A DNA stretch of 43,321 nt from an uncultured Bacilli bacterium (lineage in GTDB: Bacteria > Bacillota_I > Bacilli_A > RF39 > UBA660), in assembly GCA_944350415.1 (NCBI GenBank), contig CALVOY010000015.1:1-43321 (forward strand), written 5' to 3'. Each line of letters opens with the position of its first letter. Positions within the stretch are counted from its first letter, which is position 1. Under the pieces are notes generated by a model. That model saw only the letters and a list, made by a program, of their open reading frames with translations. It was not told where the DNA came from and searched no databases. Below, one piece after another: positions 1 to 43,106 of the stretch. Made by a program: the position numbers and the translations under genes.

Positions 1-285
1 AAAATCTAAAGCATTTTGTACCGTTTTACCAATAGTATTAGAAAGTTTTAAGGTTGTTTTCGAAATATTGTTATCATATTTTTCTTCTTTATCTTCAATA
101 TATTTTTTTAAATCTATTTCTACATTATTTTTAACATCTTCTTCAAACATTTTTATTTGCTCTTCGGTAAGAGCAGCTTTATTTTTAGCTTGATAATCAA
201 TTAATCCAGCATTGGCAGAATAATATAATGCTAAAAAAATCAAAAAAATAGTTAAAGACATAATTCTTACAAAGTTATTCTTCAT
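1..285 (-). CDS. Small membrane protein downstream of spoIIP, truncated at the window edge; positional equivalent of B. subtilis YqxA
   Basis: Not in the ORF track. Read by hand: MKNNFVRIMSLTIFLIFLALYYSANAGLIDYQAKNKAALTEEQIKMFEEDVKNN...; RBS AAGGGGG upstream; overlaps the spoIIP stop; one N-terminal TM segment; open to position 1. Confidence 0.75.
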   Translation of the reverse strand, partial: MKNNFVRIMSLTIFLIFLALYYSANAGLIDYQAKNKAALTEEQIKMFEEDVKNNVEIDLKKYIEDKEEKYDNNISKTTLKLSNTIGKTVQNALDF

Positions 286-1279
286 GCATATCCCCCTTAA
301 TATATTCAGTTAGCACTTCACTAATGGCTTCACAAGTATTAAACACCTCATCGATTGTATTATATTGACCACCAACTTCGATTAAAATAGTATTTGGATG
401 AAAATCCTGATTATAAACGCCATTTACTCCTGATCCTTGCTTTTTATAAATCCCTCTAGATAATCCAGGATATTTTTCATTAAATTGTTCATTTAGAGTT
501 TCAGTCATTTTTAAATTCTGGGCATAATTAGGATTTTCTAATCCAACAATAAACAAAATTTTGGCATACTTTTTATCTCCAATCGTAGTACTAGAGATAG
601 TTTTATTCACAGAATCACGATGTAGATCAACAAAATAATTTAAAGTACTATTTTTACTATAAGCATCTTCCATTAATAGTTTTGTAACTTTATAACTAGA
701 AGCATAATTCCAATTATTAGTTCTTAAAAATTCTGTGACATCATTTTCTTCTACAATGGTTGGAATACCATTATTATTTAGTTTTTCTCTTAATATGTAA
801 CTAGTCATCATAACCGTTGGTTTTACATTATAGCTTGCTAGATTGTCAGTAGAATATTCTTCTGATTGATGAGTATTATATAAATATACAACTGGCTCTG
901 TAGGAGCTTGGTTATCATAAGGATCCTCTACATAATTAGAAGAAGGAATACTATCAATATCTTTATCATCATCAGATGAAGTTGGCAAATCCTCTTCCTT
1001 CATATTCAATTGCAATAAAGTAGCCGGTTTAGAAATATCGATATCTGTAATCAAAGCAATGAAATCACTAAAAAAATTAGATTTTTGTTTTAATTCTAAA
1101 TGACTATTTCCATTCTGTAATAATAGTCTAAGAAATTGTTCATTATCCATATTCTTAGAAAAATACCGCAGCGTAAAACAAAACGAAAAAGAAAACAAGG
1201 AAACTATGAAAAACAACTTGCATTTCATATAACGATGTTTTCTAGAATTTTTCATTTTCATTTTTTGAATCTTTTTCAT
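275..1279 (-). CDS. spoIIP: Stage II sporulation protein P (engulfment peptidoglycan amidase/endopeptidase)
   Basis: YLYNTHQSEEY, DLHRDS, GVYNQD and ILIEVGG motifs; N-terminal TM; directly downstream of gpr. Start moved to ATG 1279 after GGTGGGTGA. Confidence 0.93.
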   Translation of the reverse strand: MKKIQKMKMKNSRKHRYMKCKLFFIVSLFSFSFCFTLRYFSKNMDNEQFLRLLLQNGNSHLELKQKSNFFSDFIALITDIDISKPATLLQLNMKEEDLPTSSDDDKDIDSIPSSNYVEDPYDNQAPTEPVVYLYNTHQSEEYSTDNLASYNVKPTVMMTSYILREKLNNNGIPTIVEENDVTEFLRTNNWNYASSYKVTKLLMEDAYSKNSTLNYFVDLHRDSVNKTISSTTIGDKKYAKILFIVGLENPNYAQNLKMTETLNEQFNEKYPGLSRGIYKKQGSGVNGVYNQDFHPNTILIEVGGQYNTIDEVFNTCEAISEVLTEYIKGDMHEE

Positions 1280-1320
1280 CCTATCACCCACCACTATCAA
1301 TATAAGCGAATAGGTAAGGT

Positions 1321-2352
1321 TTATATGTCGAAATTTTTGTGTAATGACTTATTTATTGCCAAAGCCAAAACTTCACTTGTCTTTTCAATCACAAAATCAA
1401 TTTCTTTTGGGGTAACCATCATATTATAACCAATTGGGGTTAATACTTCAAAAATCAATTCTTTGATCTCTTCTTCCTCCAAATTTCCTAATTCTCCTAA
1501 CAACCTTGTTTTTTCTTCTTTAGATAACTCATTAGTATGCTCCAAATAATCTCTCATAGTAACAGGAATCAATTTATTTTTATGATAAGTTTCCTTATTA
1601 TAACTAAAATGTTTTAATAAGTATTGAATGGTATCACTTACTAATACAAAAGCCTCAATTACTGTAGGTACTCCGATCGATATTACCGGAATATGCAAAG
1701 TTTCATAACTAAGTTCTTTTCGATTATTATAAACACCACTGCCTGGATGAATTCCAGAGTCAGTAATTTGGATCGTTTTATTTATCCTATCCATACTACT
1801 AGAAGCCAGCGCATCAATCACGATCACAAAATCTGGTTTAATTTGATCGATAATTCCTAGAATAATATCACTACTTTCTATTCCTGTATCACCGGTAACA
1901 CCAGGAATAAATGTTGCCACATTGCGATAATTAGGGTCTACTTGAATCTGTTCAATCTCATAAAGATATCTAGTAGCTAAAATTTGTTCCACTGTTTTAG
2001 GACCTAGAGCATCAGGGGTTGCTTTTCTATTTCCTAAACCTACTACCAAACATTTTTGCTTCTCTTGAATTTCTAAATAAGCAAATATTTTTTTTAACTC
2101 TGCAATTACTACTTTCTCTAAATTCTTGGCATTTACTTTATCCGTTACATCCTGATAACTAATAGTAACATATCTACCCTTTTTCTTATGTAATTTATTT
2201 TCCTCTTTGGTAATAGAAACTTCCAATACTTTGATATCATCATATTCTTCTACTTTAGAAACAATTCCCTCTTCTTGTTGATTGATATCAAAAACATCCA
2301 CTAACAAATCGGTACGTATCGAATACTGTTTCAAGTCCTTTTCACTTTTCAT
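1321..2352 (-). CDS. gpr: Spore germination protease GPR
   Basis: IRTDL, VVGLGN..TPDALGP, IDALA, GIHPGSGV.N.R, GVPTV and MMVTPKEID motifs; divergent from rpsT as in Bacillus. Start moved to ATG 2352 after AGGTGA. Confidence 0.96.
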   Translation of the reverse strand: MKSEKDLKQYSIRTDLLVDVFDINQQEEGIVSKVEEYDDIKVLEVSITKEENKLHKKKGRYVTISYQDVTDKVNAKNLEKVVIAELKKIFAYLEIQEKQKCLVVGLGNRKATPDALGPKTVEQILATRYLYEIEQIQVDPNYRNVATFIPGVTGDTGIESSDIILGIIDQIKPDFVIVIDALASSSMDRINKTIQITDSGIHPGSGVYNNRKELSYETLHIPVISIGVPTVIEAFVLVSDTIQYLLKHFSYNKETYHKNKLIPVTMRDYLEHTNELSKEEKTRLLGELGNLEEEEIKELIFEVLTPIGYNMMVTPKEIDFVIEKTSEVLALAINKSLHKNFDI

Positions 2353-2367
2353 ATGATCACCTACTCC

Positions 2368-2397
2368 TATTTTTTCCATTTTTTTGATATTTTATTT
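2368..2397 (-). promoter_or_regulatory. Possible sigma-F/G-type promoter of gpr
   Basis: AAATA-N15-GGAAAAAATA. The -10 fits the sigma-F consensus GGnnAnAnTA; the -35 matches only 3/5. gpr is sigma-F/G dependent in B. subtilis. Confidence 0.35.
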
Positions 2398-21436: not shown

Positions 21437-22621
21437 CTATTCCGATTCTGCTTCATTATTTTCTATAATATTGGATATTTCTTGATAATCTGTAATATCT
21501 TCATAAATTTTATAAAACATTACTACTACTATTTTACTATCTTCTTCTGTGATTTTCAAATTTTTTTCATATAATATTTCAATCTCTTCTCCTAAGTCTT
21601 GTTTTAAGTGCTTTTGAGCAATTTCTGATGCTTCAGTAACAGCATTTTCTTTTGTATAAACTTTATCTATCACTTCCACTTCTTGCTGGTTTACAAGAGA
21701 TATAGAAATAGGAAGCAAGTTATTTTGAAGTTTAAAAATTACTTCTTCTTGGCTATTATCATATTTTTTAAAATCAAACCAATTATAAGAATTGTGAAAC
21801 CATTCAATTTGAATAATTTTTTGGGAATGATCTGTTTTCTTTTCTTCACGATAATGGTAAGGAAGTTCCACATTTACAGTATACCAAGTTTCAGCATAAA
21901 CATTGCCCTCAGCTTTTACTTTAGCTACTTCCTCTTCCTTATTATGGATAGTACCTCCAATTAAAACATCTCCCTTTTTTACATATTGATCTTTTTTAAC
22001 CATAATTTCTCCACTAGAAGAAACTATTTTTTTAATCAAACCGTTCTTCTTAGCAACAATATTACGAGGCGTATCATCCGCTACATTTTCATTTTTCTTT
22101 CGTTCTTCTACTTTTATTACATATTTAGTACCTTGTCTTTCGATTTCTAACCATTCAATTTGATCTTTATATTTTTTTAATATATTTTCTTTAATTTGTT
22201 CTTTTTTATCATAAGATACTACCAAACTGTATTTATCGATTCCCTCATTTTTTAATTCTTCTAAAATTAATTCTCTTAACTCTTTATCATTATGAACCAC
22301 CTCTACATCAAAAACAATATTGGTAAGTCCTAAAAACATAAGAAAACCCAATACTAAAGCCATCAAAAATAACCAATATTTTTTAATAAAGCCTTTAATA
22401 GAAGCAAATCCATAAACTTTAACAACTTCTATTTCATAAATAGTTTTAATCGTTAAAATTTTTTTATAGTCTTCTTCAGAAACCTTAATAATGACACTAT
22501 TTTTTTCAAAAACTATGTTTAAAAACTCAATATGCATTTTATGTAAATTATGTAAAAATCGTTTTATATCCTTTCCGGATATTTTAACATCATAGAAACT
22601 AACATTATTTCCTAAAATCAA
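21437..22621 (-). CDS. yqfD: Sporulation protein YqfD (stage IV)
   Basis: TM followed by a POTRA-like region, W..I...GT...I.VEE, P.NIVAKK.G.I, V.KGDVLI.G and A.G.V.A.TWY motifs. Start uncertain. Confidence 0.92.
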   Translation of the reverse strand: MILGNNVSFYDVKISGKDIKRFLHNLHKMHIEFLNIVFEKNSVIIKVSEEDYKKILTIKTIYEIEVVKVYGFASIKGFIKKYWLFLMALVLGFLMFLGLTNIVFDVEVVHNDKELRELILEELKNEGIDKYSLVVSYDKKEQIKENILKKYKDQIEWLEIERQGTKYVIKVEERKKNENVADDTPRNIVAKKNGLIKKIVSSSGEIMVKKDQYVKKGDVLIGGTIHNKEEEVAKVKAEGNVYAETWYTVNVELPYHYREEKKTDHSQKIIQIEWFHNSYNWFDFKKYDNSQEEVIFKLQNNLLPISISLVNQQEVEVIDKVYTKENAVTEASEIAQKHLKQDLGEEIEILYEKNLKITEEDSKIVVVMFYKIYEDITDYQEISNIIENNEAESE

Positions 22622-22838
22622 GAGTATTGATATCTCCTACTATTACAATTTCATTATCTAAAAGTTTTCTAACACGCAAATTTTCTCCTATAATCACAAT
22701 TGTTCCTAATGAGTAAGATAATGATATTTTTTCATTTTCCATATAGTTGATTCTATCATAATTTACAATATTTAATTCCCCATTAATATACACGATTTGA
22801 AAATCGGTAGTATTAATATAGCGCATGATATTAAACAT
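22605..22838 (-). CDS. yqfC: YabP/YqfC family sporulation protein
   Basis: L.IVNY..I, I.GENL.V..L...EI.I.G.I motif; directly upstream of yqfD. Confidence 0.85.
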   Translation of the reverse strand: MFNIMRYINTTDFQIVYINGELNIVNYDRINYMENEKISLSYSLGTIVIIGENLRVRKLLDNEIVIVGDINTLDFRK

Positions 22839-22890: not shown

Positions 22891-23298
22891 TTATAATGAC
22901 TTTATCTTTTCTGATTCTTGAAGAGAAAGTTCGATATCTTTCAATTCTAACTTAGCTATCAATTCTTCTAATTCCTCACCATCTAAAGATTCTATATATG
23001 CTTGTGTGGTTTCTAACTGCTGTATAGTTTCTTGATATACACGATTACCATGAATAGAAACACTAGTTCCTGCCGAAGTAGTCACACTACCTAAAGTCGT
23101 TTCTAAAAAATTGTTATCTCTATCTCCTGAATTTATTACCCTAGTTCCTAAACCGCTGGTTTCTGTAGCTGATAAAGTAGTAGATGTAGGAAGGAAACTA
23201 CCAGATGATTCTAAAGTACCCAATCCATTCAATGAAAAAAGTGAATTAGTAGATTCTGCAATTAAATTTTCACAAAATAAGCTAGTAAATTTAAACAT
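22891..23298 (-). CDS. Hypothetical Ser/Thr/Gly-rich protein with an acidic helical C-terminus
   Basis: 135 aa; strong RBS AGGAGGT; start overlaps the stop of the upstream gene. Confidence 0.75.
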   Translation of the reverse strand: MFKFTSLFCENLIAESTNSLFSLNGLGTLESSGSFLPTSTTLSATETSGLGTRVINSGDRDNNFLETTLGSVTTSAGTSVSIHGNRVYQETIQQLETTQAYIESLDGEELEELIAKLELKDIELSLQESEKIKSL

Positions 23299-24067
23299 TT
23301 TTACGACCTCCTATTCGTTTTTCCTGTTCCTGTTTAGTGTGCAATTCTTGCAAATAAGAATACTGTTCTTTCACATATTCTAATAATTGTACTGCTTGCT
23401 CACGAGTTGTAATATTATTGACTATCTCATCAATACTTGGTATCTGAATTTGTGAATTTATAGCTTGCGAAACAGGAACTATTCCTTCCTGCAAATTCTT
23501 TAAATTAGATTCTAATTTTTTATCCTCTAATCTTTTCAGACAACTATACATTCTTTTATTTTGAAAACGGCATAAATTATAATTTTGAAGATTAACACAT
23601 TCAAAATTAATCACCAAACTTAAGACTTGTGCCAAAGCGCAAATACCACTAAATACCGGAAATGGATTTCCTAACATAAATGTAGTTATTCCAATTATTA
23701 CTATAATTATAATATTCTTTTTCATACCTCTTTGATGAATCTTTTTATTCATCTCTAAATATTTTATAAATCTAGTTGGATAATTAGGATCATAATGGTA
23801 ATTTCTATTTTGCTTATAAACCAATTCCTTACGAAAAACTAATTTTTGTTTCTGATATTCACGCAATAATGTTTTTTCATCCACTATATGCTGTTTTCTA
23901 ATTCTTCTTAAAAACTGCTTATCACACTGTTTTTCATAATATACTTTAATATTAGGAAAAAATTTTTGAATTATTTGATATTTTAATTTTTCTAAGATAA
24001 AAACGACTTTTTGAAATTGTTCTGCACCTAACAAAGTGTATATTTTTAATTTTGTTTTTCCATCCAT
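23291..24067 (-). CDS. Membrane protein distantly resembling the CrtO acyltransferase family
   Basis: IY..LG...F.K near the N-terminus, a His before two TM segments, then N.....LQ.YN..R, similar to the CrtO-family QRYNR.R motif. Start ATG 24067 after GAGGGG. Confidence 0.5.
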   Translation of the reverse strand: MDGKTKLKIYTLLGAEQFQKVVFILEKLKYQIIQKFFPNIKVYYEKQCDKQFLRRIRKQHIVDEKTLLREYQKQKLVFRKELVYKQNRNYHYDPNYPTRFIKYLEMNKKIHQRGMKKNIIIIVIIGITTFMLGNPFPVFSGICALAQVLSLVINFECVNLQNYNLCRFQNKRMYSCLKRLEDKKLESNLKNLQEGIVPVSQAINSQIQIPSIDEIVNNITTREQAVQLLEYVKEQYSYLQELHTKQEQEKRIGGRKNV

Positions 24068-24165
24068 AAAACCCCTCTTTTTCTTGAACAAGGCATATTA
24101 TATCACCCCCCACTTCGTCAAGCATCTTAAGAGAAAATCAAGTTATTATATATATTTACAAAAAA

Positions 24166-24971: not shown

Positions 24972-25041
24972 CACATTTTTTATCGGTTTTTCTTTTTTTA
25001 TTTATGTTTTAATCAAAAAAAGAAATTGGCAAACCAATTTC

Positions 25042-25227
25042 TTAATATACAACAATATGATATAGGAATCTTATAAAAGTTCCCAAATAAATGCCTAATT
25101 GAAATAAAGTGCTTAATAGTAAGTTTAAAACAGTTAAACCAAAAGGCAAACATAAAAACAATGTGATTGTTTTAACTATTTTCTTATGTTCTAAAAAAAC
25201 ATTTTTCCATTTTGTTATAGTTGACAT
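25042..25227 (-). CDS. Small hydrophobic protein, candidate immunity/partner protein of the peptide locus
   Basis: 61 aa, basic N-terminus then a long hydrophobic stretch; no GG leader; start overlaps the end of peptide B. Confidence 0.6.
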   Translation of the reverse strand: MSTITKWKNVFLEHKKIVKTITLFLCLPFGLTVLNLLLSTLFQLGIYLGTFIRFLYHIVVY

Positions 25228-25385
25228 ATATTATTGTTTCCAATTCTTCTAATAGAACTACCCAAACTTTGCCCTAAAGAATAAATAAATTTTGCTGTAC
25301 TTAAAAAAGCATTAACAATTGTTCCTGTAAGATTAAATCCACCAACTATCCATAATAAGTCTTGTTGATTATAAATTCTTTCCAT
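25215..25385 (-). CDS. Double-glycine-leader peptide B (bacteriocin-like precursor, 56 aa)
   Basis: Not in the ORF track. MERIYNQQDLLWIVGG|FNLTGTIVNAFLSTAKFIYSLGQSLGSSIRRIGNNNICQL; RBS AGAAAGGAG; L..I.GG leader; GxxxG (GQSLG). Confidence 0.85.
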   Translation of the reverse strand: MERIYNQQDLLWIVGGFNLTGTIVNAFLSTAKFIYSLGQSLGSSIRRIGNNNICQL

Positions 25386-25397
25386 ATGTTCTCCTTT

Positions 25398-25535
25398 CTA
25401 ATTACATTTTAAAGGTCTAGCAATTCCATCTAAAACACCTACAATGAATACAACCGCTGAAACTATCCCAGCAATTCCCCAAAAACCAATCCCACCATTG
25501 ATGGTTTCTAATTCTTTTTCTCCTAATTTCTTCAT
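25398..25535 (-). CDS. Double-glycine-leader peptide A (class IIb bacteriocin-like precursor, 45 aa)
   Basis: Not in the ORF track. MKKLGEKELETINGG|IGFWGIAGIVSAVVFIVGVLDGIARPLKCN; RBS AAAGGAGGT; canonical L...EL..I.GG leader; GxxxG (GVLDG); ATGA overlap with the upstream gene. Confidence 0.9.
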   Translation of the reverse strand: MKKLGEKELETINGGIGFWGIAGIVSAVVFIVGVLDGIARPLKCN

Positions 25536-25963
25536 CCAATACCTCCTTTTATAAATTCAATTAACATTTGAAATATAGTTTTATTACTTTTTAAAAAGTA
25601 ACAATCGGTTGCAATAGCATCTGTTTTGTAGTTATAGGGGTTAATATAAATTACTTGGTAAATATTACCATCGATATTTGAATAATCAGAGCTAATACTT
25701 TCGATTTGGTATTCATATCTTTCATTTTGAATATAAAGATAGGAATTTGCTTCTATATCTGGTATTTTTTTACTATCTACCATGAATAAAAAGCGATCAT
25801 CTTCTTTTATTAAAATATATTTCTCATATGTTTGAAAATTGAACTTACACAATACTATAAATATCACTATTATGAATACAATAAGAAATATCATTCGTCC
25901 CCAACCTATTCGAATTTCTTTCTCTATCAATTGATAGTCCTGAATTGTCCAATTATTCTTCAT
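25532..25963 (-). CDS. Very small transporter accessory protein (probably a minimal HlyD/LcnD-like adaptor)
   Basis: 143 aa; one N-terminal TM, a beta-rich body and C-terminal KTIFQMLIE reminiscent of HlyD-family ends; overlaps the transporter stop. Confidence 0.55.
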   Translation of the reverse strand: MKNNWTIQDYQLIEKEIRIGWGRMIFLIVFIIVIFIVLCKFNFQTYEKYILIKEDDRFLFMVDSKKIPDIEANSYLYIQNERYEYQIESISSDYSNIDGNIYQVIYINPYNYKTDAIATDCYFLKSNKTIFQMLIEFIKGGIG

Positions 25964-28037
25964 AACTTACTCCCCTATCAATACGATACTTTTTTTGAAA
26001 TAAATCTTGGTTATGGAATCGATGTGAAATCACAATAAATGTCTTATCTTTGTAAAAATAAAGTAAATTTTTCAAAATTTGTCTCTCTGTTTTAATATCT
26101 ACTTCATTTAAAGATTCATCTAATATATAAATCTGTGCATCTTTTAACAGTGCCCTTGCTAATATAATTCTCTGTCTTTGGCCACCACTAAGGTTAAAGC
26201 CATCTTCTTCTAACAACTGATCATAAGCCAAAATATCATTATTTGCGAATTCATCAATCATACAACATCGAGCAATGTTCAAAAAATCATTATAATCTAC
26301 TTGCTTGTCCAGTACGATGTTTTGATATATAGAATCTGTAAACAAAGTTTCCTGTTGAGAAATGTAACAAATTTCTTTTCTAATACAATTTAATGAATAA
26401 TGAGAAATATCATTTCCATCGTAAAAAAGCATTCTATTTTTAATTTCTAACTGCTTTGCCAAAATCTTTGCTAAAGTGCTTTTTCCACTACCACTTTTTC
26501 CATATATTAAAACCTTATCGCCAGGATTAATCTTTAAATTAATATCCCTAAGAAAAAGATCTTTTCCATTATAGGAGTATTTTAAATGACAACTTTCTAT
26601 TTTACCTAACAGTTTTCTATTTATTTTCATATGATCCAACTTTAAATTTTCTGTTTCCACTTCATAAAGTTCTCGAATTCTAGCAAAAGAAATTTTAGCT
26701 TCTTTCCAAGATAAATCTAAATCTATGATATTTTTAATTGGATCTAGTAAATAACTCATCAAAGTAATAAAAGTAATTAAAACAGAGATATCGATTTCTT
26801 TATGTAATACTAAAAAACTTCCAAAAATCATAATAAAGAAGATTCCGAATTGATCAATCAAATTTTTAAAAAACTGTTCTAAAATAAATAGATAGTTATA
26901 AGAAAGACTATTTTGATTATACTTACAATATTTTAATAAAAAGTTTCTTTCCGTAAATTCTTGAATGTTTTGATTTTTAATGGTTTCTATACCGCCAATT
27001 GTTTCTACTAAAAAAGAATTTAGTTGTGCAGCTTTTTCTTTGCTTTTAAAAATTCTTTTTTCTAACAATGGTCTAAATAAAAACATTATCAATACGAGCA
27101 AAACAATACTAATAACCAGTAGCAAAGTTAATTTCATATTCAAGTAGAATAAAGTCCAAAATGTAAAAAGTGCTAATACAACATCCATGAATACAGTAAC
27201 TAATAATTTGCTGATGACATTTCTAATGCTAGATAAATCTTCCATCCTAGCTATGATTTCTCCAGTAGTCCTATTCTTATAATAGAGATATGGGAGAGAT
27301 AAAATATGATGATATACATTGACAAACAAAGACTTATCCAATTGATGATTGATATGATTGATTAGAACATTACGATAATAATTACTACTTTCTTTTATAA
27401 AAATAATATTTGCAAAAATCAAAGCAATTGGTAATAAGTTGCTAATCGTTTGATAGGAAATCACATACTCCATTAATATCTTAAATTGAAAAGAAAATAA
27501 TATATTAAAAATAGTAAAGATGAAAGACAGAAAGAATAAAAAAAGTAACTTTTTTCGTTTAGAAACGATAAACTCTAATAAAAAACTTTTCAATATCTTG
27601 TTTTGCTTTACATACATAATTTTCTTCTGTGGTTTTAAAAAGATAAATTGTTCAGTTGATATATTTTGAAACTCTTGAAAAGATACCTTTTGTAATCCTT
27701 TTTTGGCAGGATCTGCAATCACTAATATCTTCTTGCGAAAGTTAATTTCATAAATCACCACAAAATGTTGGTAACTCTTTTTTATGGTTACATGCGCAAT
27801 ACAAGGTAAAAACTCCTTTTCAATGGATTGAAAATTTCCTCTTACTCCATAACCTGAAAAGCCTAAAATTTTAGCTCCCTCAATTAAAGAATAAGCACTT
27901 ACACCTTCTTTGGTTGTATTCGTAATATTTCTTAAATACTCCTTTGACACTCCTCCACCATAATATCTCACAAGCATTAATAAACAACATACACCACAAT
28001 CTTTTAAGTCTAATTGTTTTTCAAATGGATACTTCAT
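25953..28037 (-). CDS. Peptidase-containing ABC transporter (C39 peptidase + TMD + ATPase; ComA/SunT/LagD-like)
   Basis: Q....DCG catalytic Cys, HFVV and IADPA; R.TGEI..R; Walker A GKSGSGKST, LSGGQRQR, ILDE and SHR. Start ATG 28037 after GGGAGGTGA. Confidence 0.95.
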   Translation of the reverse strand: MKYPFEKQLDLKDCGVCCLLMLVRYYGGGVSKEYLRNITNTTKEGVSAYSLIEGAKILGFSGYGVRGNFQSIEKEFLPCIAHVTIKKSYQHFVVIYEINFRKKILVIADPAKKGLQKVSFQEFQNISTEQFIFLKPQKKIMYVKQNKILKSFLLEFIVSKRKKLLFLFFLSFIFTIFNILFSFQFKILMEYVISYQTISNLLPIALIFANIIFIKESSNYYRNVLINHINHQLDKSLFVNVYHHILSLPYLYYKNRTTGEIIARMEDLSSIRNVISKLLVTVFMDVVLALFTFWTLFYLNMKLTLLLVISIVLLVLIMFLFRPLLEKRIFKSKEKAAQLNSFLVETIGGIETIKNQNIQEFTERNFLLKYCKYNQNSLSYNYLFILEQFFKNLIDQFGIFFIMIFGSFLVLHKEIDISVLITFITLMSYLLDPIKNIIDLDLSWKEAKISFARIRELYEVETENLKLDHMKINRKLLGKIESCHLKYSYNGKDLFLRDINLKINPGDKVLIYGKSGSGKSTLAKILAKQLEIKNRMLFYDGNDISHYSLNCIRKEICYISQQETLFTDSIYQNIVLDKQVDYNDFLNIARCCMIDEFANNDILAYDQLLEEDGFNLSGGQRQRIILARALLKDAQIYILDESLNEVDIKTERQILKNLLYFYKDKTFIVISHRFHNQDLFQKKYRIDRGVSYEE

Positions 28038-28084
28038 AAATTCACCTCCCAATAGTATTATTTAAAAAACTTAGAAAAAGACTT

Positions 28085-28110
28085 AAAAAAAGTAGCTCAA
28101 ACTACTTTTT
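28085..28110 (-). terminator. Intrinsic terminator upstream of the transporter gene
   Basis: Minus strand AAAAAGTAG-TTTGAG-CTACTTTTTTT. Confidence 0.7.
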
Positions 28111-28135
28111 CTTTATAATTAAAACTATTAAAATT

Positions 28136-28257
28136 AATTTAACGAGTTCATCAAGAATATAATTTAATAACAAAATGTAGAACAATATCATCTTAAATCA
28201 GAATAGTATTACCTAGATTTTGTTATTAAACTACACTAATGTTTTCACCCTCAAATT
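28136..28257 (-). ncRNA. Candidate structured RNA (long hairpin) of unknown class
   Basis: 25-nt arms 28156-28180 and 28213-28237 pair with one mismatch and three G-U pairs on the minus strand; shorter inner and outer extensions. Confidence 0.4.
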
Positions 28258-28263
28258 CGCACG

Positions 28264-28305
28264 AAAAAATGACATTCTCAGGCTGTACTTCAAATGTCAT
28301 TTTTT
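28264..28305. terminator. Terminator-like hairpin after addA
   Basis: AAAAAATGACATT-16 nt-AATGTCATTTTTT. Confidence 0.65.
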
Positions 28306-28352
28306 ATGCCCTTATACTTATATCTCTTTTTTATTTGAGAACTTTATTATAA

Positions 28353-31300
28353 CTATCTAGTTTTACCAGAACGCATATCAACAATTTCATCTATTTGCTT
28401 CCATTTCTGATCCATAATAGAATACAAATAAATATATGATTTCTTTTTTGTCTTCTGTTCGATATACTTTTGATACCCTTTTAACTGTTCTAAATATTCT
28501 AAATCTTCAATATATTTTAGCTTATAATCAATAATATCTATATGTGTCTCATATTCTAGCATTAAATCAATAATCCCATGTTTTTCTTGATGGCTATCAT
28601 CTATCATATAAAATTCATATTCTTTTAGAACATTGGCCTCTTGAATATTAGATAAAAAAGGTTGTTCCAAAAAAGAAAGAATCAATTTCTTTTCAAATGA
28701 AGAAATATCTAGGGACTCTACCTGAGGGTTTTTAAAGTCAATCATTTCCAATAATTCATGAATCCGTATTCCAAAACTCATATTATCTTTTTGTTCTTTA
28801 GTTAATAAGCTATGAGTAGATTTAGAAAAATGAGTTTTTTCTACCAAAATTTCTTTATCATGTGAATACTCGGAAACATTAAAAAAAACAGGATCTATTT
28901 TCTCAAAAACTTTATCAGTATTCAAAATTTTATAATCTTGAGATAGTGGCACCTGATCTAAAGAAACAGGAAGGATGTAAGGTTCCAGAATTTCATAAAT
29001 ACTCTTTAAAATATCTAGAAAAGAACGATATTGTTCTCTTTCTGAACTACTAACAAAACCATCATTCAAATAACTTTCTTGTTCTTCTAAATTAGCAACC
29101 ACAATCATCTGTTCCTTACACCTAGTTAGTGCTACATAAAACAAACGTATCTTTTCACTAATTTCTTCTTTCATATATTTCTTTTTTAATAATAATTTAT
29201 AAAATGTATCTTGATACCCATTTTGAAAACTAGGAATCACAATCCCATACTCTGAATCAAATAAGACTTTTTCTTTTAAATCACTAATATTAAAAGAAAG
29301 AGATAATCCACTATAATAACAAATAGGATACTCTAACCCCTTCGACTTATGAATCGTCATAATTTGACAACTATTCTTATCCATAATAGAAACTGGTATT
29401 TTAATTGCTTTCCCACTATCTATAATATAATCTAAATAGACAATAAATCGATGATAATCATAACCTAGTTCTTGTAAATTACTAGCTAAATCTAAAAAAT
29501 ACTCTAAAACAGATATTCCCATTTGAACATTACCAAAAGTAATCAACTTTTTAGAAAATTCAAATTCTTCTATAATAATCGAAATAAGATTAGAAAGATT
29601 CATAGTAGATATCATATTCACTATTTTTTGAATTTTTTGAATAATCTCTGTTTCAAAATACAATTGCTTTTGAACAATATGAAATATTTCTTGATCGGGA
29701 TAGGAATATAAATAACTTCTGGCAATGCTCACAAAACAATACTGAAAACGATTTCCAAAATCTTTGGCTTCTAAACACTCTATTAATTTTAAAATATTAC
29801 GAATTAAATAAACTTCATTCTGATCCATAATATTTTCATCTCGTAAAATAGTTAACGGAATATTCATATACTCAAATATCTTTTTATATAGTGTGAATTT
29901 GCTACTTCGATCCATTAGAATAACAAAATCACTATATTGAATATCTCGTAAAACACCTGTATCTTTATCAAACACCTGATATTTTTCTTTTATTTTTTTC
30001 TGAATATCAGAAGCAATCGTAAAAGCTTCTATTTCATCTTTGGTATATTTTTTATAAATAGAATCTTTTTCGATTGAATAGTTTAGAATACGAATATTAT
30101 AGTCTTGCGTCGTAAGGCCTTCTTGAAGATAAGCATGATTGCCAAAAACCATTCGATGACTAGCTTGATAATCTGCTCCACCAAAGTCATCATCCATAAT
30201 AGCATCAAAAAAAATATTAATATTATCTAACACTTCTTTTCGACTACGGAAATTTTTATTTAAATCTATTTTAATTCCGCCCACTTTTTTAGAATAAAGA
30301 TCATATTTTTGCTTAAAAATCAAAGGATTTGCATTTCGAAAGCGATAAATAGACTGCTTAATATCCCCAACCATATAAGTATTATGATTCTCAATAAGAT
30401 GAATAAATTGTTCCTGTAAATCAGAAGTATCTTGATACTCATCAATCATAATTTCCTTAAAATAATTTTTTAATTCCGCACGAATATCGGGATATTGAAC
30501 TACCAAATCAATGGCTAATTTGGAAATATCTACAAATTCAAAAGCATTCATTTCATTTTTATAATGCCAAATTTGATCCTCTAGCTTTTGTATCAGTTCT
30601 ATAATAATTTGAATATCATTCTTAGTAGAACAGTAATCCTTGATCATCTCATCTCTATTTTCAAATAAACACATACTAGATAATTCTTCTAAATATTGTT
30701 TGATTCTTTCTTTATTTTTCTTTAACTGATTATCACTATTTTTAGGAAGTCTTGGTAATTTAATATCCAAACTACACTTTATATCTTCATAGCATTCTGC
30801 ATGGAATAAAGGGGCTAGCACTTCTAGAAACTGATAATAGCTATCTCCATCTAAAGCAAGTTCTAAATCTTTTAAAACAGAAGCTATTTCTTGAATTACA
30901 TTCTTTAAAAGCCTCTCATATTCTATAATTCCTTGATCGATTCTCTTAGGATCAAAATATACTTCTAAATAAGAAGTAAGGTAATCTTTTTTATCATATT
31001 TTAAATCCAACTTATCATTAATTGCTAAAATATATTGTTTGATTTCTTTATCATCACGTAGAGAAAAATTAGTAATTAGATTTAAAAAAGCCGGATCTTG
31101 TTGTTGATAATACTCATCAAAAAGCTTATCTAGCATTTCTTCTTTAACCAAGGAAATGGCATGTTCATCGATAATAGAAACATTTTCTTTTAAGTTCATT
31201 CGATCATGATATTTTTTCACAATCGATAATGCAAACGAATCAAAGGTAGTAATATAGGTTTTATCAATTCGATTGACTTGTTCCGTGAATCCATTCTTAG

Positions 31301-40799: not shown

Positions 40800-40816
40800 G
40801 TGCTTCCTATCTTTTT
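40780..40816. terminator. Bidirectional terminator-like hairpin
   Basis: AAAAGATAGAAAG...CTTCCTATCTTTT between convergent genes. Confidence 0.55.
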
Positions 40817-43106
40817 ATTCTTCTTCACTATTTTCTAATTTTACCAAAACTTCTCGAGGCTTAGATCCATTCTGAGGACCTATGATTCCTCTTTCTTCTA
40901 ATAAATCGACAATTCTAGCTGCACGGTTATACCCAAGACGATACTTTCTTTGCAATAAAGAAGCACTTACCTTACCAGTTGTAATCACAAACTCTACTAC
41001 TTCATTATATAAAGGATCATCATACTCTTCTGGAGCATCTTTTACATCGCTAACACTCATTCCTTCAGACTCATTACTTCCTAAGTTCATAAATCTTTCA
41101 TCATACTGAGCTTTTTGTTGAGATACCGTATAATCTACAATTTTCTGCAAATCTTCATCAGATACATAAGCACCTTGCACTCTAACCGGAGTAATATCTC
41201 CCATAGGAGAAAATAGCATATCTCCTTTTCCAAGTAGTTTTTCAGCTCCGCTTTGATCTAAAATCGTACGAGAGTCAATATTAGAAGAAACAGCAAATGC
41301 AATTCGTGAAGGAATATTGGCTTTAATAACTCCTGTAATAACATCAGTAGAAGGTCTTTGTGTTGCGATAATCAAATGAATTCCAGCAGCACGGGCCATT
41401 TGCGTAATACGCATAATAGAATCTTCTACTTCTTTGCTTGCTACTAACATTAAATCCGCAAGTTCATCGACAATGACCACAATATAAGGCATATGACTGA
41501 TTTTGTCTTCCTCTGCTAAAGTTTCATTCTGCTTATCGACCCATTCATTATAAGTAGATATGTTTTTTACTCCTTTATCACTAAATTTATCATAACGATC
41601 TTCCATTTCTCGAACAATTCTCTTTAAAGCATCATTGGCTTTTCTAGGATCTGTTACTACCGGAATTAATAAATGTGGAACACCATTATACATACTAAGT
41701 TCTACCTTTTTAGGGTCTACTAATACTAATTTTACTTCCGAAGGTTTGGTCCTCATCAATAAGGAAGCAATAATACAGTTAATACAAACGGATTTACCAG
41801 ATCCTGTTGCACCAGCAACCAATAAATGTGGGGTTTTATCAATCTCACAAAAAATACTATTTCCCATAATATTTTTTCCCAAAGCAACCATTAACTTACT
41901 TTTTTCCTTATTAGCAGGAAAACTTTCTAATATTTCTCTTAATCCTACTGGTGTCACCGTATCATTAGCAAGCTCAATTCCTACCGTGCTTTTACCAGGA
42001 ATAGGTGCCTGAATTCGAACATCTTTCTTAGCAAGAGCTAACGAAATTTCTTTACTTAATCCAGTAATTTTACTCATTTTAGTTCCGGATGATATTTCTA
42101 ATTCATATTGAGTTACACTAGGTCCGACATTGACTTCTACTACTTTAGCAGTAATACCAAAATCTTTTAAAACCTTCTCTAGTTTTATGATATTAGATTC
42201 AATTACATCATTATTACTACCAGCCGCTTTTTTCTTAGTTGGAGTTAGTAAAGATAATGATGGCAATTTATAATGATAATTCGTATTATCATTAATTTTT
42301 ACCTCTGTATTAGAGCTTGTAGGAATAGGACCAACACTAGTCACATTGTTACTATTCAAACTAACATTATCATTTTTACCAGTATCATCTCTCAAACGGG
42401 TAATTTCGTCAATACTATGAATTTTAATCTTATTTTCTTCTTTATCTTCTACCTGCGTCAAAGCATCCTTGATCACGGAAGAATCATTTACAATAACTCC
42501 AGTATCTTCCAAAGAACGCTTTTTCTTTTTCTTGCGTTTGAACGGTTTTAAAATCATTGCGAAAATATCCATTCCAGTCATAAAAACAATACCTAAAACA
42601 ATCAAAACAACCGATACAATATAAGTTCCCTCTACTGCAAACAACTTATAAAACAAAGTGCTAAAAAAAGCGCCAATAATTCCAGCTCCTTTTAGTGTTA
42701 AAAGATTCCCATTTAAAATATTAGAAAAATTAGCTAATAAATTATCAATGGTATCTTGAAAAACTACTAGTACATCACTGGTATTTGCTTTCACATATCC
42801 AATATGAGCCAGCACAATAAAACCAATTGCCAAAATATAACATCCAATTAATCGCGTTGTAAAAAAATCTGGCCACTCTCTTTTATAAATTAAATAAAAG
42901 CCTAATAATAAAGTAATTAACAACAAAATCTGATAACCAGTACCGATTAAAAACATCGCAAAACTAGCACCAATTTGTCCAATAAATCCCAAAGGTTCTG
43001 GAACAATACTCAATATACTAGCAATGATGAACACCAAACCTATAATCTCATTCCAATGTTCAAACTTTTTCTTTCCGGTATCTTTTTTCTTTTTCTTTTT
43101 TGCCAT
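40815..43106 (-). CDS. ftsK: DNA translocase FtsK/SpoIIIE
   Basis: N-terminal TMs; GPSVT.YE, APIPGKS.VGIE, PHLLVAGATGSGKS, VDELADLM, ATQRPS, LLGKGDML and gamma domain LQRKYRLGYNRAAR. Confidence 0.97.
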   Translation of the reverse strand: MAKKKKKKDTGKKKFEHWNEIIGLVFIIASILSIVPEPLGFIGQIGASFAMFLIGTGYQILLLITLLLGFYLIYKREWPDFFTTRLIGCYILAIGFIVLAHIGYVKANTSDVLVVFQDTIDNLLANFSNILNGNLLTLKGAGIIGAFFSTLFYKLFAVEGTYIVSVVLIVLGIVFMTGMDIFAMILKPFKRKKKKKRSLEDTGVIVNDSSVIKDALTQVEDKEENKIKIHSIDEITRLRDDTGKNDNVSLNSNNVTSVGPIPTSSNTEVKINDNTNYHYKLPSLSLLTPTKKKAAGSNNDVIESNIIKLEKVLKDFGITAKVVEVNVGPSVTQYELEISSGTKMSKITGLSKEISLALAKKDVRIQAPIPGKSTVGIELANDTVTPVGLREILESFPANKEKSKLMVALGKNIMGNSIFCEIDKTPHLLVAGATGSGKSVCINCIIASLLMRTKPSEVKLVLVDPKKVELSMYNGVPHLLIPVVTDPRKANDALKRIVREMEDRYDKFSDKGVKNISTYNEWVDKQNETLAEEDKISHMPYIVVIVDELADLMLVASKEVEDSIMRITQMARAAGIHLIIATQRPSTDVITGVIKANIPSRIAFAVSSNIDSRTILDQSGAEKLLGKGDMLFSPMGDITPVRVQGAYVSDEDLQKIVDYTVSQQKAQYDERFMNLGSNESEGMSVSDVKDAPEEYDDPLYNEVVEFVITTGKVSASLLQRKYRLGYNRAARIVDLLEERGIIGPQNGSKPREVLVKLENSEEE

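Follow-up and report, generated by a model that had tools for sequence, protein, structure and literature searches.

A probable class IIb-type two-peptide export system conserved across an order of small-genome gut Bacilli

The stretch of DNA described here, referred to as the window, comprises 43,321 nucleotides (nt) of an uncultured Bacilli bacterium (GenBank assembly GCA_944350415.1, contig CALVOY010000015.1, positions 1 to 43,321). Its minus strand contains, at 25042-28037, a unit of five open reading frames (ORFs) that probably forms a vertically inherited, self-contained two-peptide export system of the class IIb bacteriocin type, kept as a near-universal single-copy locus in an order of small-genome gut Bacilli or 'Tenericutes'. 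The unit consists of an ATP-binding cassette (ABC) exporter with a C39 peptidase domain, a small helper protein, two precursors with double-glycine leaders (peptides A and B), and a third small protein, and has the following layout.

25953-28037, minus strand: exporter, 694 amino acids (aa) from the ATG at 28037, or 699 aa from a TTG at 28052
25532-25963, minus strand: helper, 143 aa, with an N-terminal membrane helix and a small beta-barrel domain
25398-25535, minus strand: peptide A precursor, 45 aa, with leader at 25491-25535 (15 aa) and core at 25401-25490 (30 aa)
25215-25385, minus strand: peptide B precursor, 56 aa, with leader at 25338-25385 (16 aa) and core at 25218-25337 (40 aa)
25042-25227, minus strand: third protein, 61 aa, a leaderless membrane protein and candidate immunity protein
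25020-25043, minus strand: intrinsic-terminator-like hairpin that closes the unit, with a 10-pair stem, a 4-nt loop and a TTTTT tail

The frames of the unit are closely packed. The exporter and helper overlap by 11 nt, the helper and peptide A by 4 nt, and peptide B and the third ORF by 13 nt, and a gap of 12 nt separates A from B. AGGAG-type ribosome-binding sites stand ahead of peptides A and B, and the hairpin with its T-run directly follows the last stop. The likely start of the exporter is the ATG at 28037, which is preceded by GGGAGGTG, rather than the TTG at 28052. An earlier reading made without database searches (the sequence-only reading) had described a tightly coupled five-gene unit here, and all of its ORFs were found in place. 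It had also held that gene calling missed the precursors. This part is not supported, as public collections, NCBI being one of them, already contain the four small proteins as predictions, and they are thus not generally missed.

The leaders end in GG at residues 14-15 of peptide A and residues 15-16 of peptide B. The core of peptide A is hydrophobic, with a grand average of hydropathy of 1.46, a net charge of +1 and one GxxxG motif. The core of peptide B is cationic and amphipathic, with a net charge of +3, a hydrophobic moment of 0.65, one GxxxG motif and an RR pair. Leaders, core lengths and motifs agree with the sequence-only reading. In an alignment of 29 peptide A sequences, GG, G33 and G37 are invariant, and the penultimate residue C44 is nearly so. 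The 29 aligned sequences of peptide B have invariant GG, G38 and G42, and nearly invariant R46, R47 and C54. Hydrophobic residues occupy positions -4, -7 and -12 in the leaders of both peptides, which are the canonical positions of double-glycine leaders. A hidden Markov model (HMM) of the leader matches only A and B among the 19,743 six-frame ORFs of the genome, and the two peptides are for this reason the only detectable substrates of the exporter. Leaders that end in AG instead of GG occur in peptide A of locus L074, in peptide B of L079 and in both peptides of L091.

Peptide A matches the NCBIfam family TIGR03949 (class IIb, lactobin A/cerein 7B family) with 28.9 bits (cut-off 21.5) over profile positions 2-42 of 45, and 26 of its 29 relatives match this family at E<=0.01. 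The family NF038034 (lactococcin G-beta/enterocin 1071B) is matched with 23.2 bits (E 6.1e-5), below the cut-off of 37, and by 18/29 relatives at E<=0.01; by these scores the relation to NF038034 is resemblance and not membership. No close relative of a characterised TIGR03949 member was identified for peptide A, and its profile has nothing significant among solved structures (best E 0.69, the Na/K-ATPase gamma subunit). Peptide B has no Pfam or NCBIfam family match. Seven of its 29 relatives match TIGR03949 weakly (best E 3.9e-4) and the peptide B of the window does not, so membership in this family is assigned to A only. Judged by profile matches, a named family gains peptide A as a new member, and peptide B, the third protein and the helper are without a curated family. 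The sequence-only reading had proposed an uncharacterised family, which stands for peptide B and the third protein and falls for peptide A.

Among 1.84 billion representatives, the peptide B profile matches 444 clusters at E<=0.001, and the 150 matches listed are 44-104 aa long. In the search that carries names, 19 clusters were found, none of them named. An apparent fusion of peptide A to a 316-aa protein was treated as a clustering artefact, because this protein is the unrelated representative of a 425-member cluster at 90% identity. Surveys that work with clusters could overlook peptide A on account of this apparent artefact.

A cysteine near the C-terminus is present in both peptides in 74 of 78 rows. 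The exceptions are locus L037, which lacks it in both peptides, a locus with a duplicated pair, which lacks it in B, one locus whose cysteine falls just beyond the 8-residue limit applied, and one contig end. The conserved pair of cysteines suggests a paired use, possibly a disulfide between A and B. A structure prediction for the complex of the A and B cores scored 0.03 against a mark of 0.32, which speaks neither for nor against binding. Locus L102 (G302:C2) has a tandem A-B-A-B arrangement upstream of rpsU, and its best-scoring B copy is without the C-terminal cysteine.

The order sample comprises 201 genomes of 98 genera and was searched with the peptide B profile. Peptide B is present in 193/201 genomes and 97/98 genera, with mostly one match per genome, which bears out the suggestion of the sequence-only reading that the core position hints at conservation. 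In the class sample the profile matches 49/49 genomes of the window's own family and the single genome (1/1) of a family from another order; elsewhere there are 4 weak leader-only matches among about 350 genomes of 29 other families. The phylum sample consists of the same families as the class sample. The weak leader matches in genomes of family f12 are not beside C39 genes there and were dropped. A full-length C39 exporter was found in 26/28 same-genus genomes. Peptide-B-negative genomes of the order have assemblies that are 91-95% complete. Among the apparent absences, G004 also lacks rpsU from its assembly, and G013 is 53% complete with rpsU in another context. Five further peptide-B-negative genomes comprise one with C39 at a contig end, three with no C39 and one with a weak match in a 1073-aa protein. 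Such cases make losses and assembly gaps inseparable.

The arrangement of the locus is likewise conserved. A search with a seven-row peptide B alignment gave 15 related loci. In the readable same-genus loci the exporter is followed by the helper, A and B, and A and B are beside it in 28/28. In all 77 related loci that have both peptides, A and B adjoin each other. The exporter is upstream on the same strand in 74/77 loci, and rpsU is downstream in 55 of the 68 testable ones, which gives the recurring order ABC-(helper)-A-B-(third gene)-rpsU. The sequence-only reading had named non-conserved small ORFs as an outcome that would speak against it; the unit instead recurs across relatives with its small ORFs conserved. 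In a sister family the unit is at another site and its exporter is encoded as two overlapping frames. At G159:C2 80600-92660, the exporter and the A-B pair are on the same strand about 9.6 kb apart, so that something is inserted between them. Many same-genus genomes have an acidic ORF of about 100-166 aa before rpsU that the window lacks. It lies between B or the third gene and rpsU in loci L010, L012, L014, L017, L019-L021, L023-L026 and L036, and several of these have an N-terminal motif like '...DLR.L.LKYDLE...'.

The ratio of nonsynonymous to synonymous substitution rates (dN/dS), was calculated for 13 pairs. It ranges over 0.08-0.28 in the exporter and 0.17-0.45 in the helper; the ranges of the peptides are 0.05-0.34 (A) and 0.01-0.25 (B), and that of the third gene is 0.14-0.48. 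By this measure purifying selection acts on every gene of the unit, and the presence of the same small ORFs in 77 related loci with dN/dS of 0.01-0.48 places the unit beyond chance. The identities of the cores track that of the exporter (Mantel r 0.69 for A and 0.70 for B, p 0.001, 55 loci), which fits vertical co-inheritance. In a comparison with the closest species, the flanks are 95-99% identical in nucleotide sequence, and identity drops to 69-77% over 25470-25070, a segment made up of the 3' end of A together with B and the third gene. The synonymous divergence of this segment is 3-6 times that of the exporter. In this one close pair, it looks like a swapped or fast-evolving cassette of peptides and protection gene.

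The exporter comprises a C39 peptidase, a domain of six membrane helices and an ATPase, which is the layout of peptidase-containing ABC transporters. It matches the Pfam families Peptidase_C39 (1e-28), ABC_membrane (7e-39) and ABC_tran (1.4e-26), all over the cut-off. Residues 7-682 align with PCAT1 (4ry2, E 4.7e-108), and the catalytic cysteine motif (DCG), HFVVIY, ADP, Walker A, LSGGQ and Walker B are all aligned. The NCBIfam model TIGR01193 (bacteriocin_ABC) is matched with 394 bits, below its cut-off of 523.85, and the exporter is on this account a divergent member of the architecture. The Mbov_0121 family NF045998 is matched with 312 bits, under a cut-off of 500. The exporter is the sole C39 protein of the 92%-complete genome. 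In two loci the exporter gene is in two pieces in different frames, of 429+270 aa in L126 (G037:C25) and about 278+399 aa in L085 (G378:C5). These could be frameshifts, pseudogenes, assembly errors or real splits. The helper of G037 is likewise in two pieces.

The AlphaFold2 model of the helper (predicted local distance difference test score 85.6) has a helix at residues 7-40 and strands at 42-129. The model thus consists of one membrane helix and one barrel, and contains no hairpin and no lipoyl domain. The best structural matches are the beta-barrel domains of membrane-fusion or periplasmic adaptor proteins, with Z scores of 7.0 for BesA, 6.4 for MacA, 6.2 for ZneB, 6.1 for CusB, 5.7 for MexA and 5.6 for Spr0693. 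Foldseek gave no match at E<=0.001, and HlyD of the HlyB/D complex (7sgr_C) has a TM-score of 0.53. None of these matches is strong enough on its own. Accessory proteins of the HlyD kind (LcnD/ComB type) comprise a membrane anchor, a lipoyl domain, a coiled-coil hairpin and a beta-barrel in about 400-480 aa. With 143 aa and the barrel only, the helper lacks this architecture; it may function like an adaptor even though the model places it outside the HlyD/membrane-fusion accessory family. The helper has no Pfam family. It matches the MAG1140 family NF045999 with 25.2 bits (E 1.5e-5) over 113/126 profile positions, under the cut-off of 35, and 19/29 of its relatives match at E<=0.01. On these scores it is remotely related to this mycoplasma family and not a member of it.

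The third protein has a basic N-terminus and one membrane helix, followed by a GxxxG-T-x-x-R segment like that of peptide B. In an alignment of 24 sequences, G45 and G49 are invariant, and T50 and R53 are nearly so; the segment GxxxG-[ST]-x-x-R is common to the third protein and peptide B. A profile-profile comparison of the two gave 71% probability and E 3.6e-5. The HMM of the peptide B core scores at least 10 bits on 10/45 third ORFs, and on 0/900 shuffled and 0/45 reversed sequences, whereas the HMM of the peptide A core matches 0/45. The 45 third ORFs were picked partly by GxxxG, which favours the result for the B core; the reversed control keeps the spacing and still gives 0. A C-terminal cysteine was seen by eye in about 21/45 third ORFs. 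By these similarities, the third protein resembles a copy of the peptide B core that is anchored in the membrane.

In the proposed mechanism, the C39 domain would cut the precursors after GG, and the pump would export A as a 30-aa hydrophobic helix and B as a 40-aa cationic amphipathic helix. The helper could act in export as a minimal adaptor resembling a membrane-fusion protein. Peptides A and B would pair through their invariant GxxxG motifs in the target membrane and make it leaky, and the one conserved cysteine near the C-terminus of each might link them. The third protein may shield the producer by replacing B beside A or at a receptor. Killing by A and B is inferred, and one possible use would be the killing or lysis of neighbours for competition or nutrients.

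The locus is mostly syntenic and single-copy in nearly all sampled genomes of an uncultured order, and these genomes have sizes of 0.6-1.8 Mb. Its near-universal retention in such shrunken genomes suggests that the system is central to the way of life of the lineage and not an optional weapon, and that the peptides do something these bacteria hardly manage without. The mature products, at just 30 and 40 residues, are short enough for direct synthesis and testing, which is a rare experimental way into a group of bacteria that has never been in culture. Three ideas reach beyond this locus: the immunity protein may have arisen from one of the peptides as a copy fixed in the membrane, A and B may form a disulfide-linked heterodimer, and the helper may be a minimal adaptor with a single domain that serves a peptide exporter in Gram-positive bacteria and is related to a mycoplasma family that is uncharacterised. 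A stronger version of the proposal is held only tentatively and is rather doubtful. It regards the unit as a lineage-defining core system with a covalent, cysteine-linked A-B heterodimer and a membrane-anchored paralogue of B as decoy, kept because the auxotrophic organisms that carry it depend on it. They might, for instance, use it to open neighbouring cells for nutrients or to control their own population during development. The heterodimer, if true, would be the first among two-peptide bacteriocins as far as the literature searched shows.

Several observations weigh against a class IIb-type export system as the explanation of the locus. Typical bacteriocin loci vary between strains and are usually patchy, mobile and soon lost, and the order-wide vertical conservation seen here is unlike that. 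No curated family includes peptide B, and its best match among solved structures is a 33-aa 'Bacteriocin' chain (5ujr) with E 1, which we take to be a carnobacteriocin peptide. The joint use of the cysteines is based on their conservation and on the single locus that lost both. The structural matches of the helper are all below Z 8, a range where common folds match, and the helper is absent in 16/77 loci, where the exporter gene abuts peptide A. A recognisable third ORF is present in only 45/77 loci. A search of four entire same-genus genomes, 90-95% complete, detected the positive control and no third ORF, and in 13 loci peptide B is 89-134 nt from rpsU, which leaves no room for it. The rule that an immunity gene always accompanies both peptides, as given in PMC2850506, is therefore not followed throughout. 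The absence of the third gene from whole clades implies that the producers are intrinsically insensitive or that the peptides are not self-toxic. From their distribution, the third gene and the helper are both dispensable in evolution. In the RNA libraries of four runs, only two short exact contigs (26744-26988 and 25470-25687) match the unit. These libraries may contain DNA, so the contigs demonstrate neither transcription nor its level, and the uncovered parts are uninformative.

Order-wide retention together with the loss of the protection gene in some clades leaves room for a self-directed or developmental role and, with lower likelihood, for signalling. An action of the exported peptides on the producer's own population is considered unlikely. 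It could be developmental, a form of fratricide or cannibalism, kin recognition, or part of the cell's own membrane physiology; an example would be the lysis of siblings without a matching third protein in sporulation or starvation. Near-universal, single-copy and syntenic retention in reduced genomes fits such a core function better than an optional weapon, and sporulation genes (SpoIIP, germination protease, YqfD, YabP and SpoIIIE) are present in the window and genome. The divergence between the closest species is concentrated in the leader of peptide B and the third gene, as for a recognition cassette, and in clades that lack the third gene A and B stay under strong purifying selection (dN/dS 0.01-0.14). 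However, the analysis found no regulatory connection with sporulation or competence, and the neighbours rpsU, yqeY and yqfCD form an ordinary conserved housekeeping block. Within the species one peptide B sequence occurs on 21 contigs, with no sign of strain-level recognition types, and cores that are conserved across genera would make poor kin labels.

It is quite improbable that A, B or both are secreted pheromones of the ComC, BlpC or plantaricin A type, sensed by a kinase/LytTR pair encoded elsewhere, with the third protein in some other role. Pheromones use the same export machinery, the ComA structure 8hf4 matches the exporter with E 1.2e-82, and elsewhere the genome encodes at least two receiver-LytTR regulators that have no kinase next to them. 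The language-model neighbours of peptide B include BlpC and ComC clusters, all with scores <0.9, which are leads only. Pheromone three-component systems (ComCDE/BlpCHR type) contain a sensor kinase and a LytTR regulator beside the peptide or exporter genes, whereas no kinase or regulator is in or beside the unit in the window, nor in the 77 related loci. Peptide A, in addition, scores over the cut-off of a bacteriocin family, and membrane-helix cores of 30 and 40 aa with GxxxG are, according to PMC2850506, typical of two-peptide bacteriocins and not of short pheromones. A third explanation, which regards the small ORFs as frames that arose by chance or as remnants in decay next to an ABC transporter, itself functional or orphan, has a negligible probability. 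The frames are short, at 45-61 codons, and AT-rich DNA such as this often contains spurious ORFs, but invariant GG and GxxxG in 77 loci of about 100 genera, dN/dS well below 1 and the ribosome-binding sites all contradict this explanation, and it was excluded on the conservation and selection data.

The genes around the unit are housekeeping and sporulation genes only, according to Pfam scans of 40 ORFs of the window. Upstream are addA and addB, and downstream are rpsU, yqeY, a yabP-family gene, yqfD, ybeY and era. The same scans contain no modification enzyme, two-component system or mobility gene, and these findings and the flanking addBA and rpsU bear out the sequence-only reading. The GC content of the unit is about that of its surroundings. 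The rpsU gene has its own near-consensus promoter-like site, TTGAAA-17-TATAAT at 24971-24943 (11/12 match). The host genome has 1.18 Mb, 92% complete, and record titles and run labels give animal guts, here chicken, as the habitat of the lineage. Sporulation and germination genes kept in this small genome are those for SpoIIP, germination protease, YqfD, the YabP family and FtsK/SpoIIIE (window 275-2379, 21437-22838 and 40815-43106). Two ORFs without a Pfam family lie at 22891-24091 between yqeY and the yabP-family gene; they encode 266 aa and 135 aa, the latter with a Ser/Thr/Gly-rich first half. The spacer between addA and the exporter (28100-28370) has about 240-270 nt without a counterpart in the closest species, G024. 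This insert contains two hairpin-plus-T-run elements and an ORF at 28102-28191 on the minus strand, whose 29 codons encode a very hydrophobic peptide ending in KKK that recalls small type I toxin genes. No repeat of the insert was found elsewhere in its own genome.

Class IIb bacteriocins are defined, in PMC2850506, by adjacent peptide genes, double-glycine leaders of 15-30 residues and GxxxG in both peptides, and their operons comprise an immunity gene, a dedicated ABC transporter that removes the leader, and an accessory protein. The unit described here has adjacent genes, leaders of 15 and 16 aa, a C39 exporter with an accessory protein and GxxxG in both cores. A candidate immunity gene is present in the window and in 45 related loci, and absent from the four same-genus genomes and from the 13 loci without room for it. 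At the level of sequence, the unit has every class IIb feature but a universal immunity gene, and the two-peptide anatomy seen by the sequence-only reading is supported feature by feature. It resembles operons of the lactococcin G type, as treated in PMC2850506, in that one unit combines paired GG precursors with an ABC transporter, an accessory protein and a membrane protein of small size, and it shares with class IIb peptides the combination of one hydrophobic and one cationic amphipathic peptide, each with GxxxG. In contrast to class IIb operons, which are strain- or species-specific, the locus is near-universal and syntenic across an order. It further differs in the accessory protein of only 143 aa, in the third gene that is missing in clades, and in the single C-terminal cysteine of each peptide, and the unit is known from its genes alone.

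Carnobacteriocin XY has a very small immunity protein, CbnZ, and such proteins may have only one membrane helix, according to the portion of PMC6957408 consulted. The combination of two peptides and a very small membrane protein is shared with the present unit. The sequence relation of peptide B to this bacteriocin is not significant (5ujr, E 1), and that portion of PMC6957408 does not speak of immunity proteins that stem from one of the two peptides. A literature search at the level of titles found no description of the locus, of bacteriocins in the lineage, or of interpeptide disulfides in two-peptide bacteriocins.

The exporter is like PCAT1 of Acetivibrio thermocellum (4ry2) and ComA (8hf4), with a full-length alignment in which the catalytic and ATPase motifs are kept, and unlike the curated bacteriocin_ABC subfamily, whose cut-off it does not reach. 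Together with the helper it matches the mycoplasma pair NF045998/NF045999, each below its cut-off, which suggests, as a matter of profile similarity, a module of exporter and small helper shared with mycoplasmas of the same class. No published function was found for the Mbov_0121 and MAG1140 families in the literature searched, and in the portions of it consulted Mbov_0121 occurs only in a table of ABC transporters. Matches of peptide B in mycoplasma families are confined to the leader. CibAB of pneumococcus is reportedly a two-peptide bacteriocin with the immunity protein CibC, used in competence fratricide and exported by a transporter encoded elsewhere. CibAB is a chromosomal, species-wide two-peptide system that kills siblings and not competitors, and its small immunity protein has a putative counterpart in the present unit. 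The present unit differs from it in that no competence or regulatory link was found, and in its conservation at the level of an order rather than a species.

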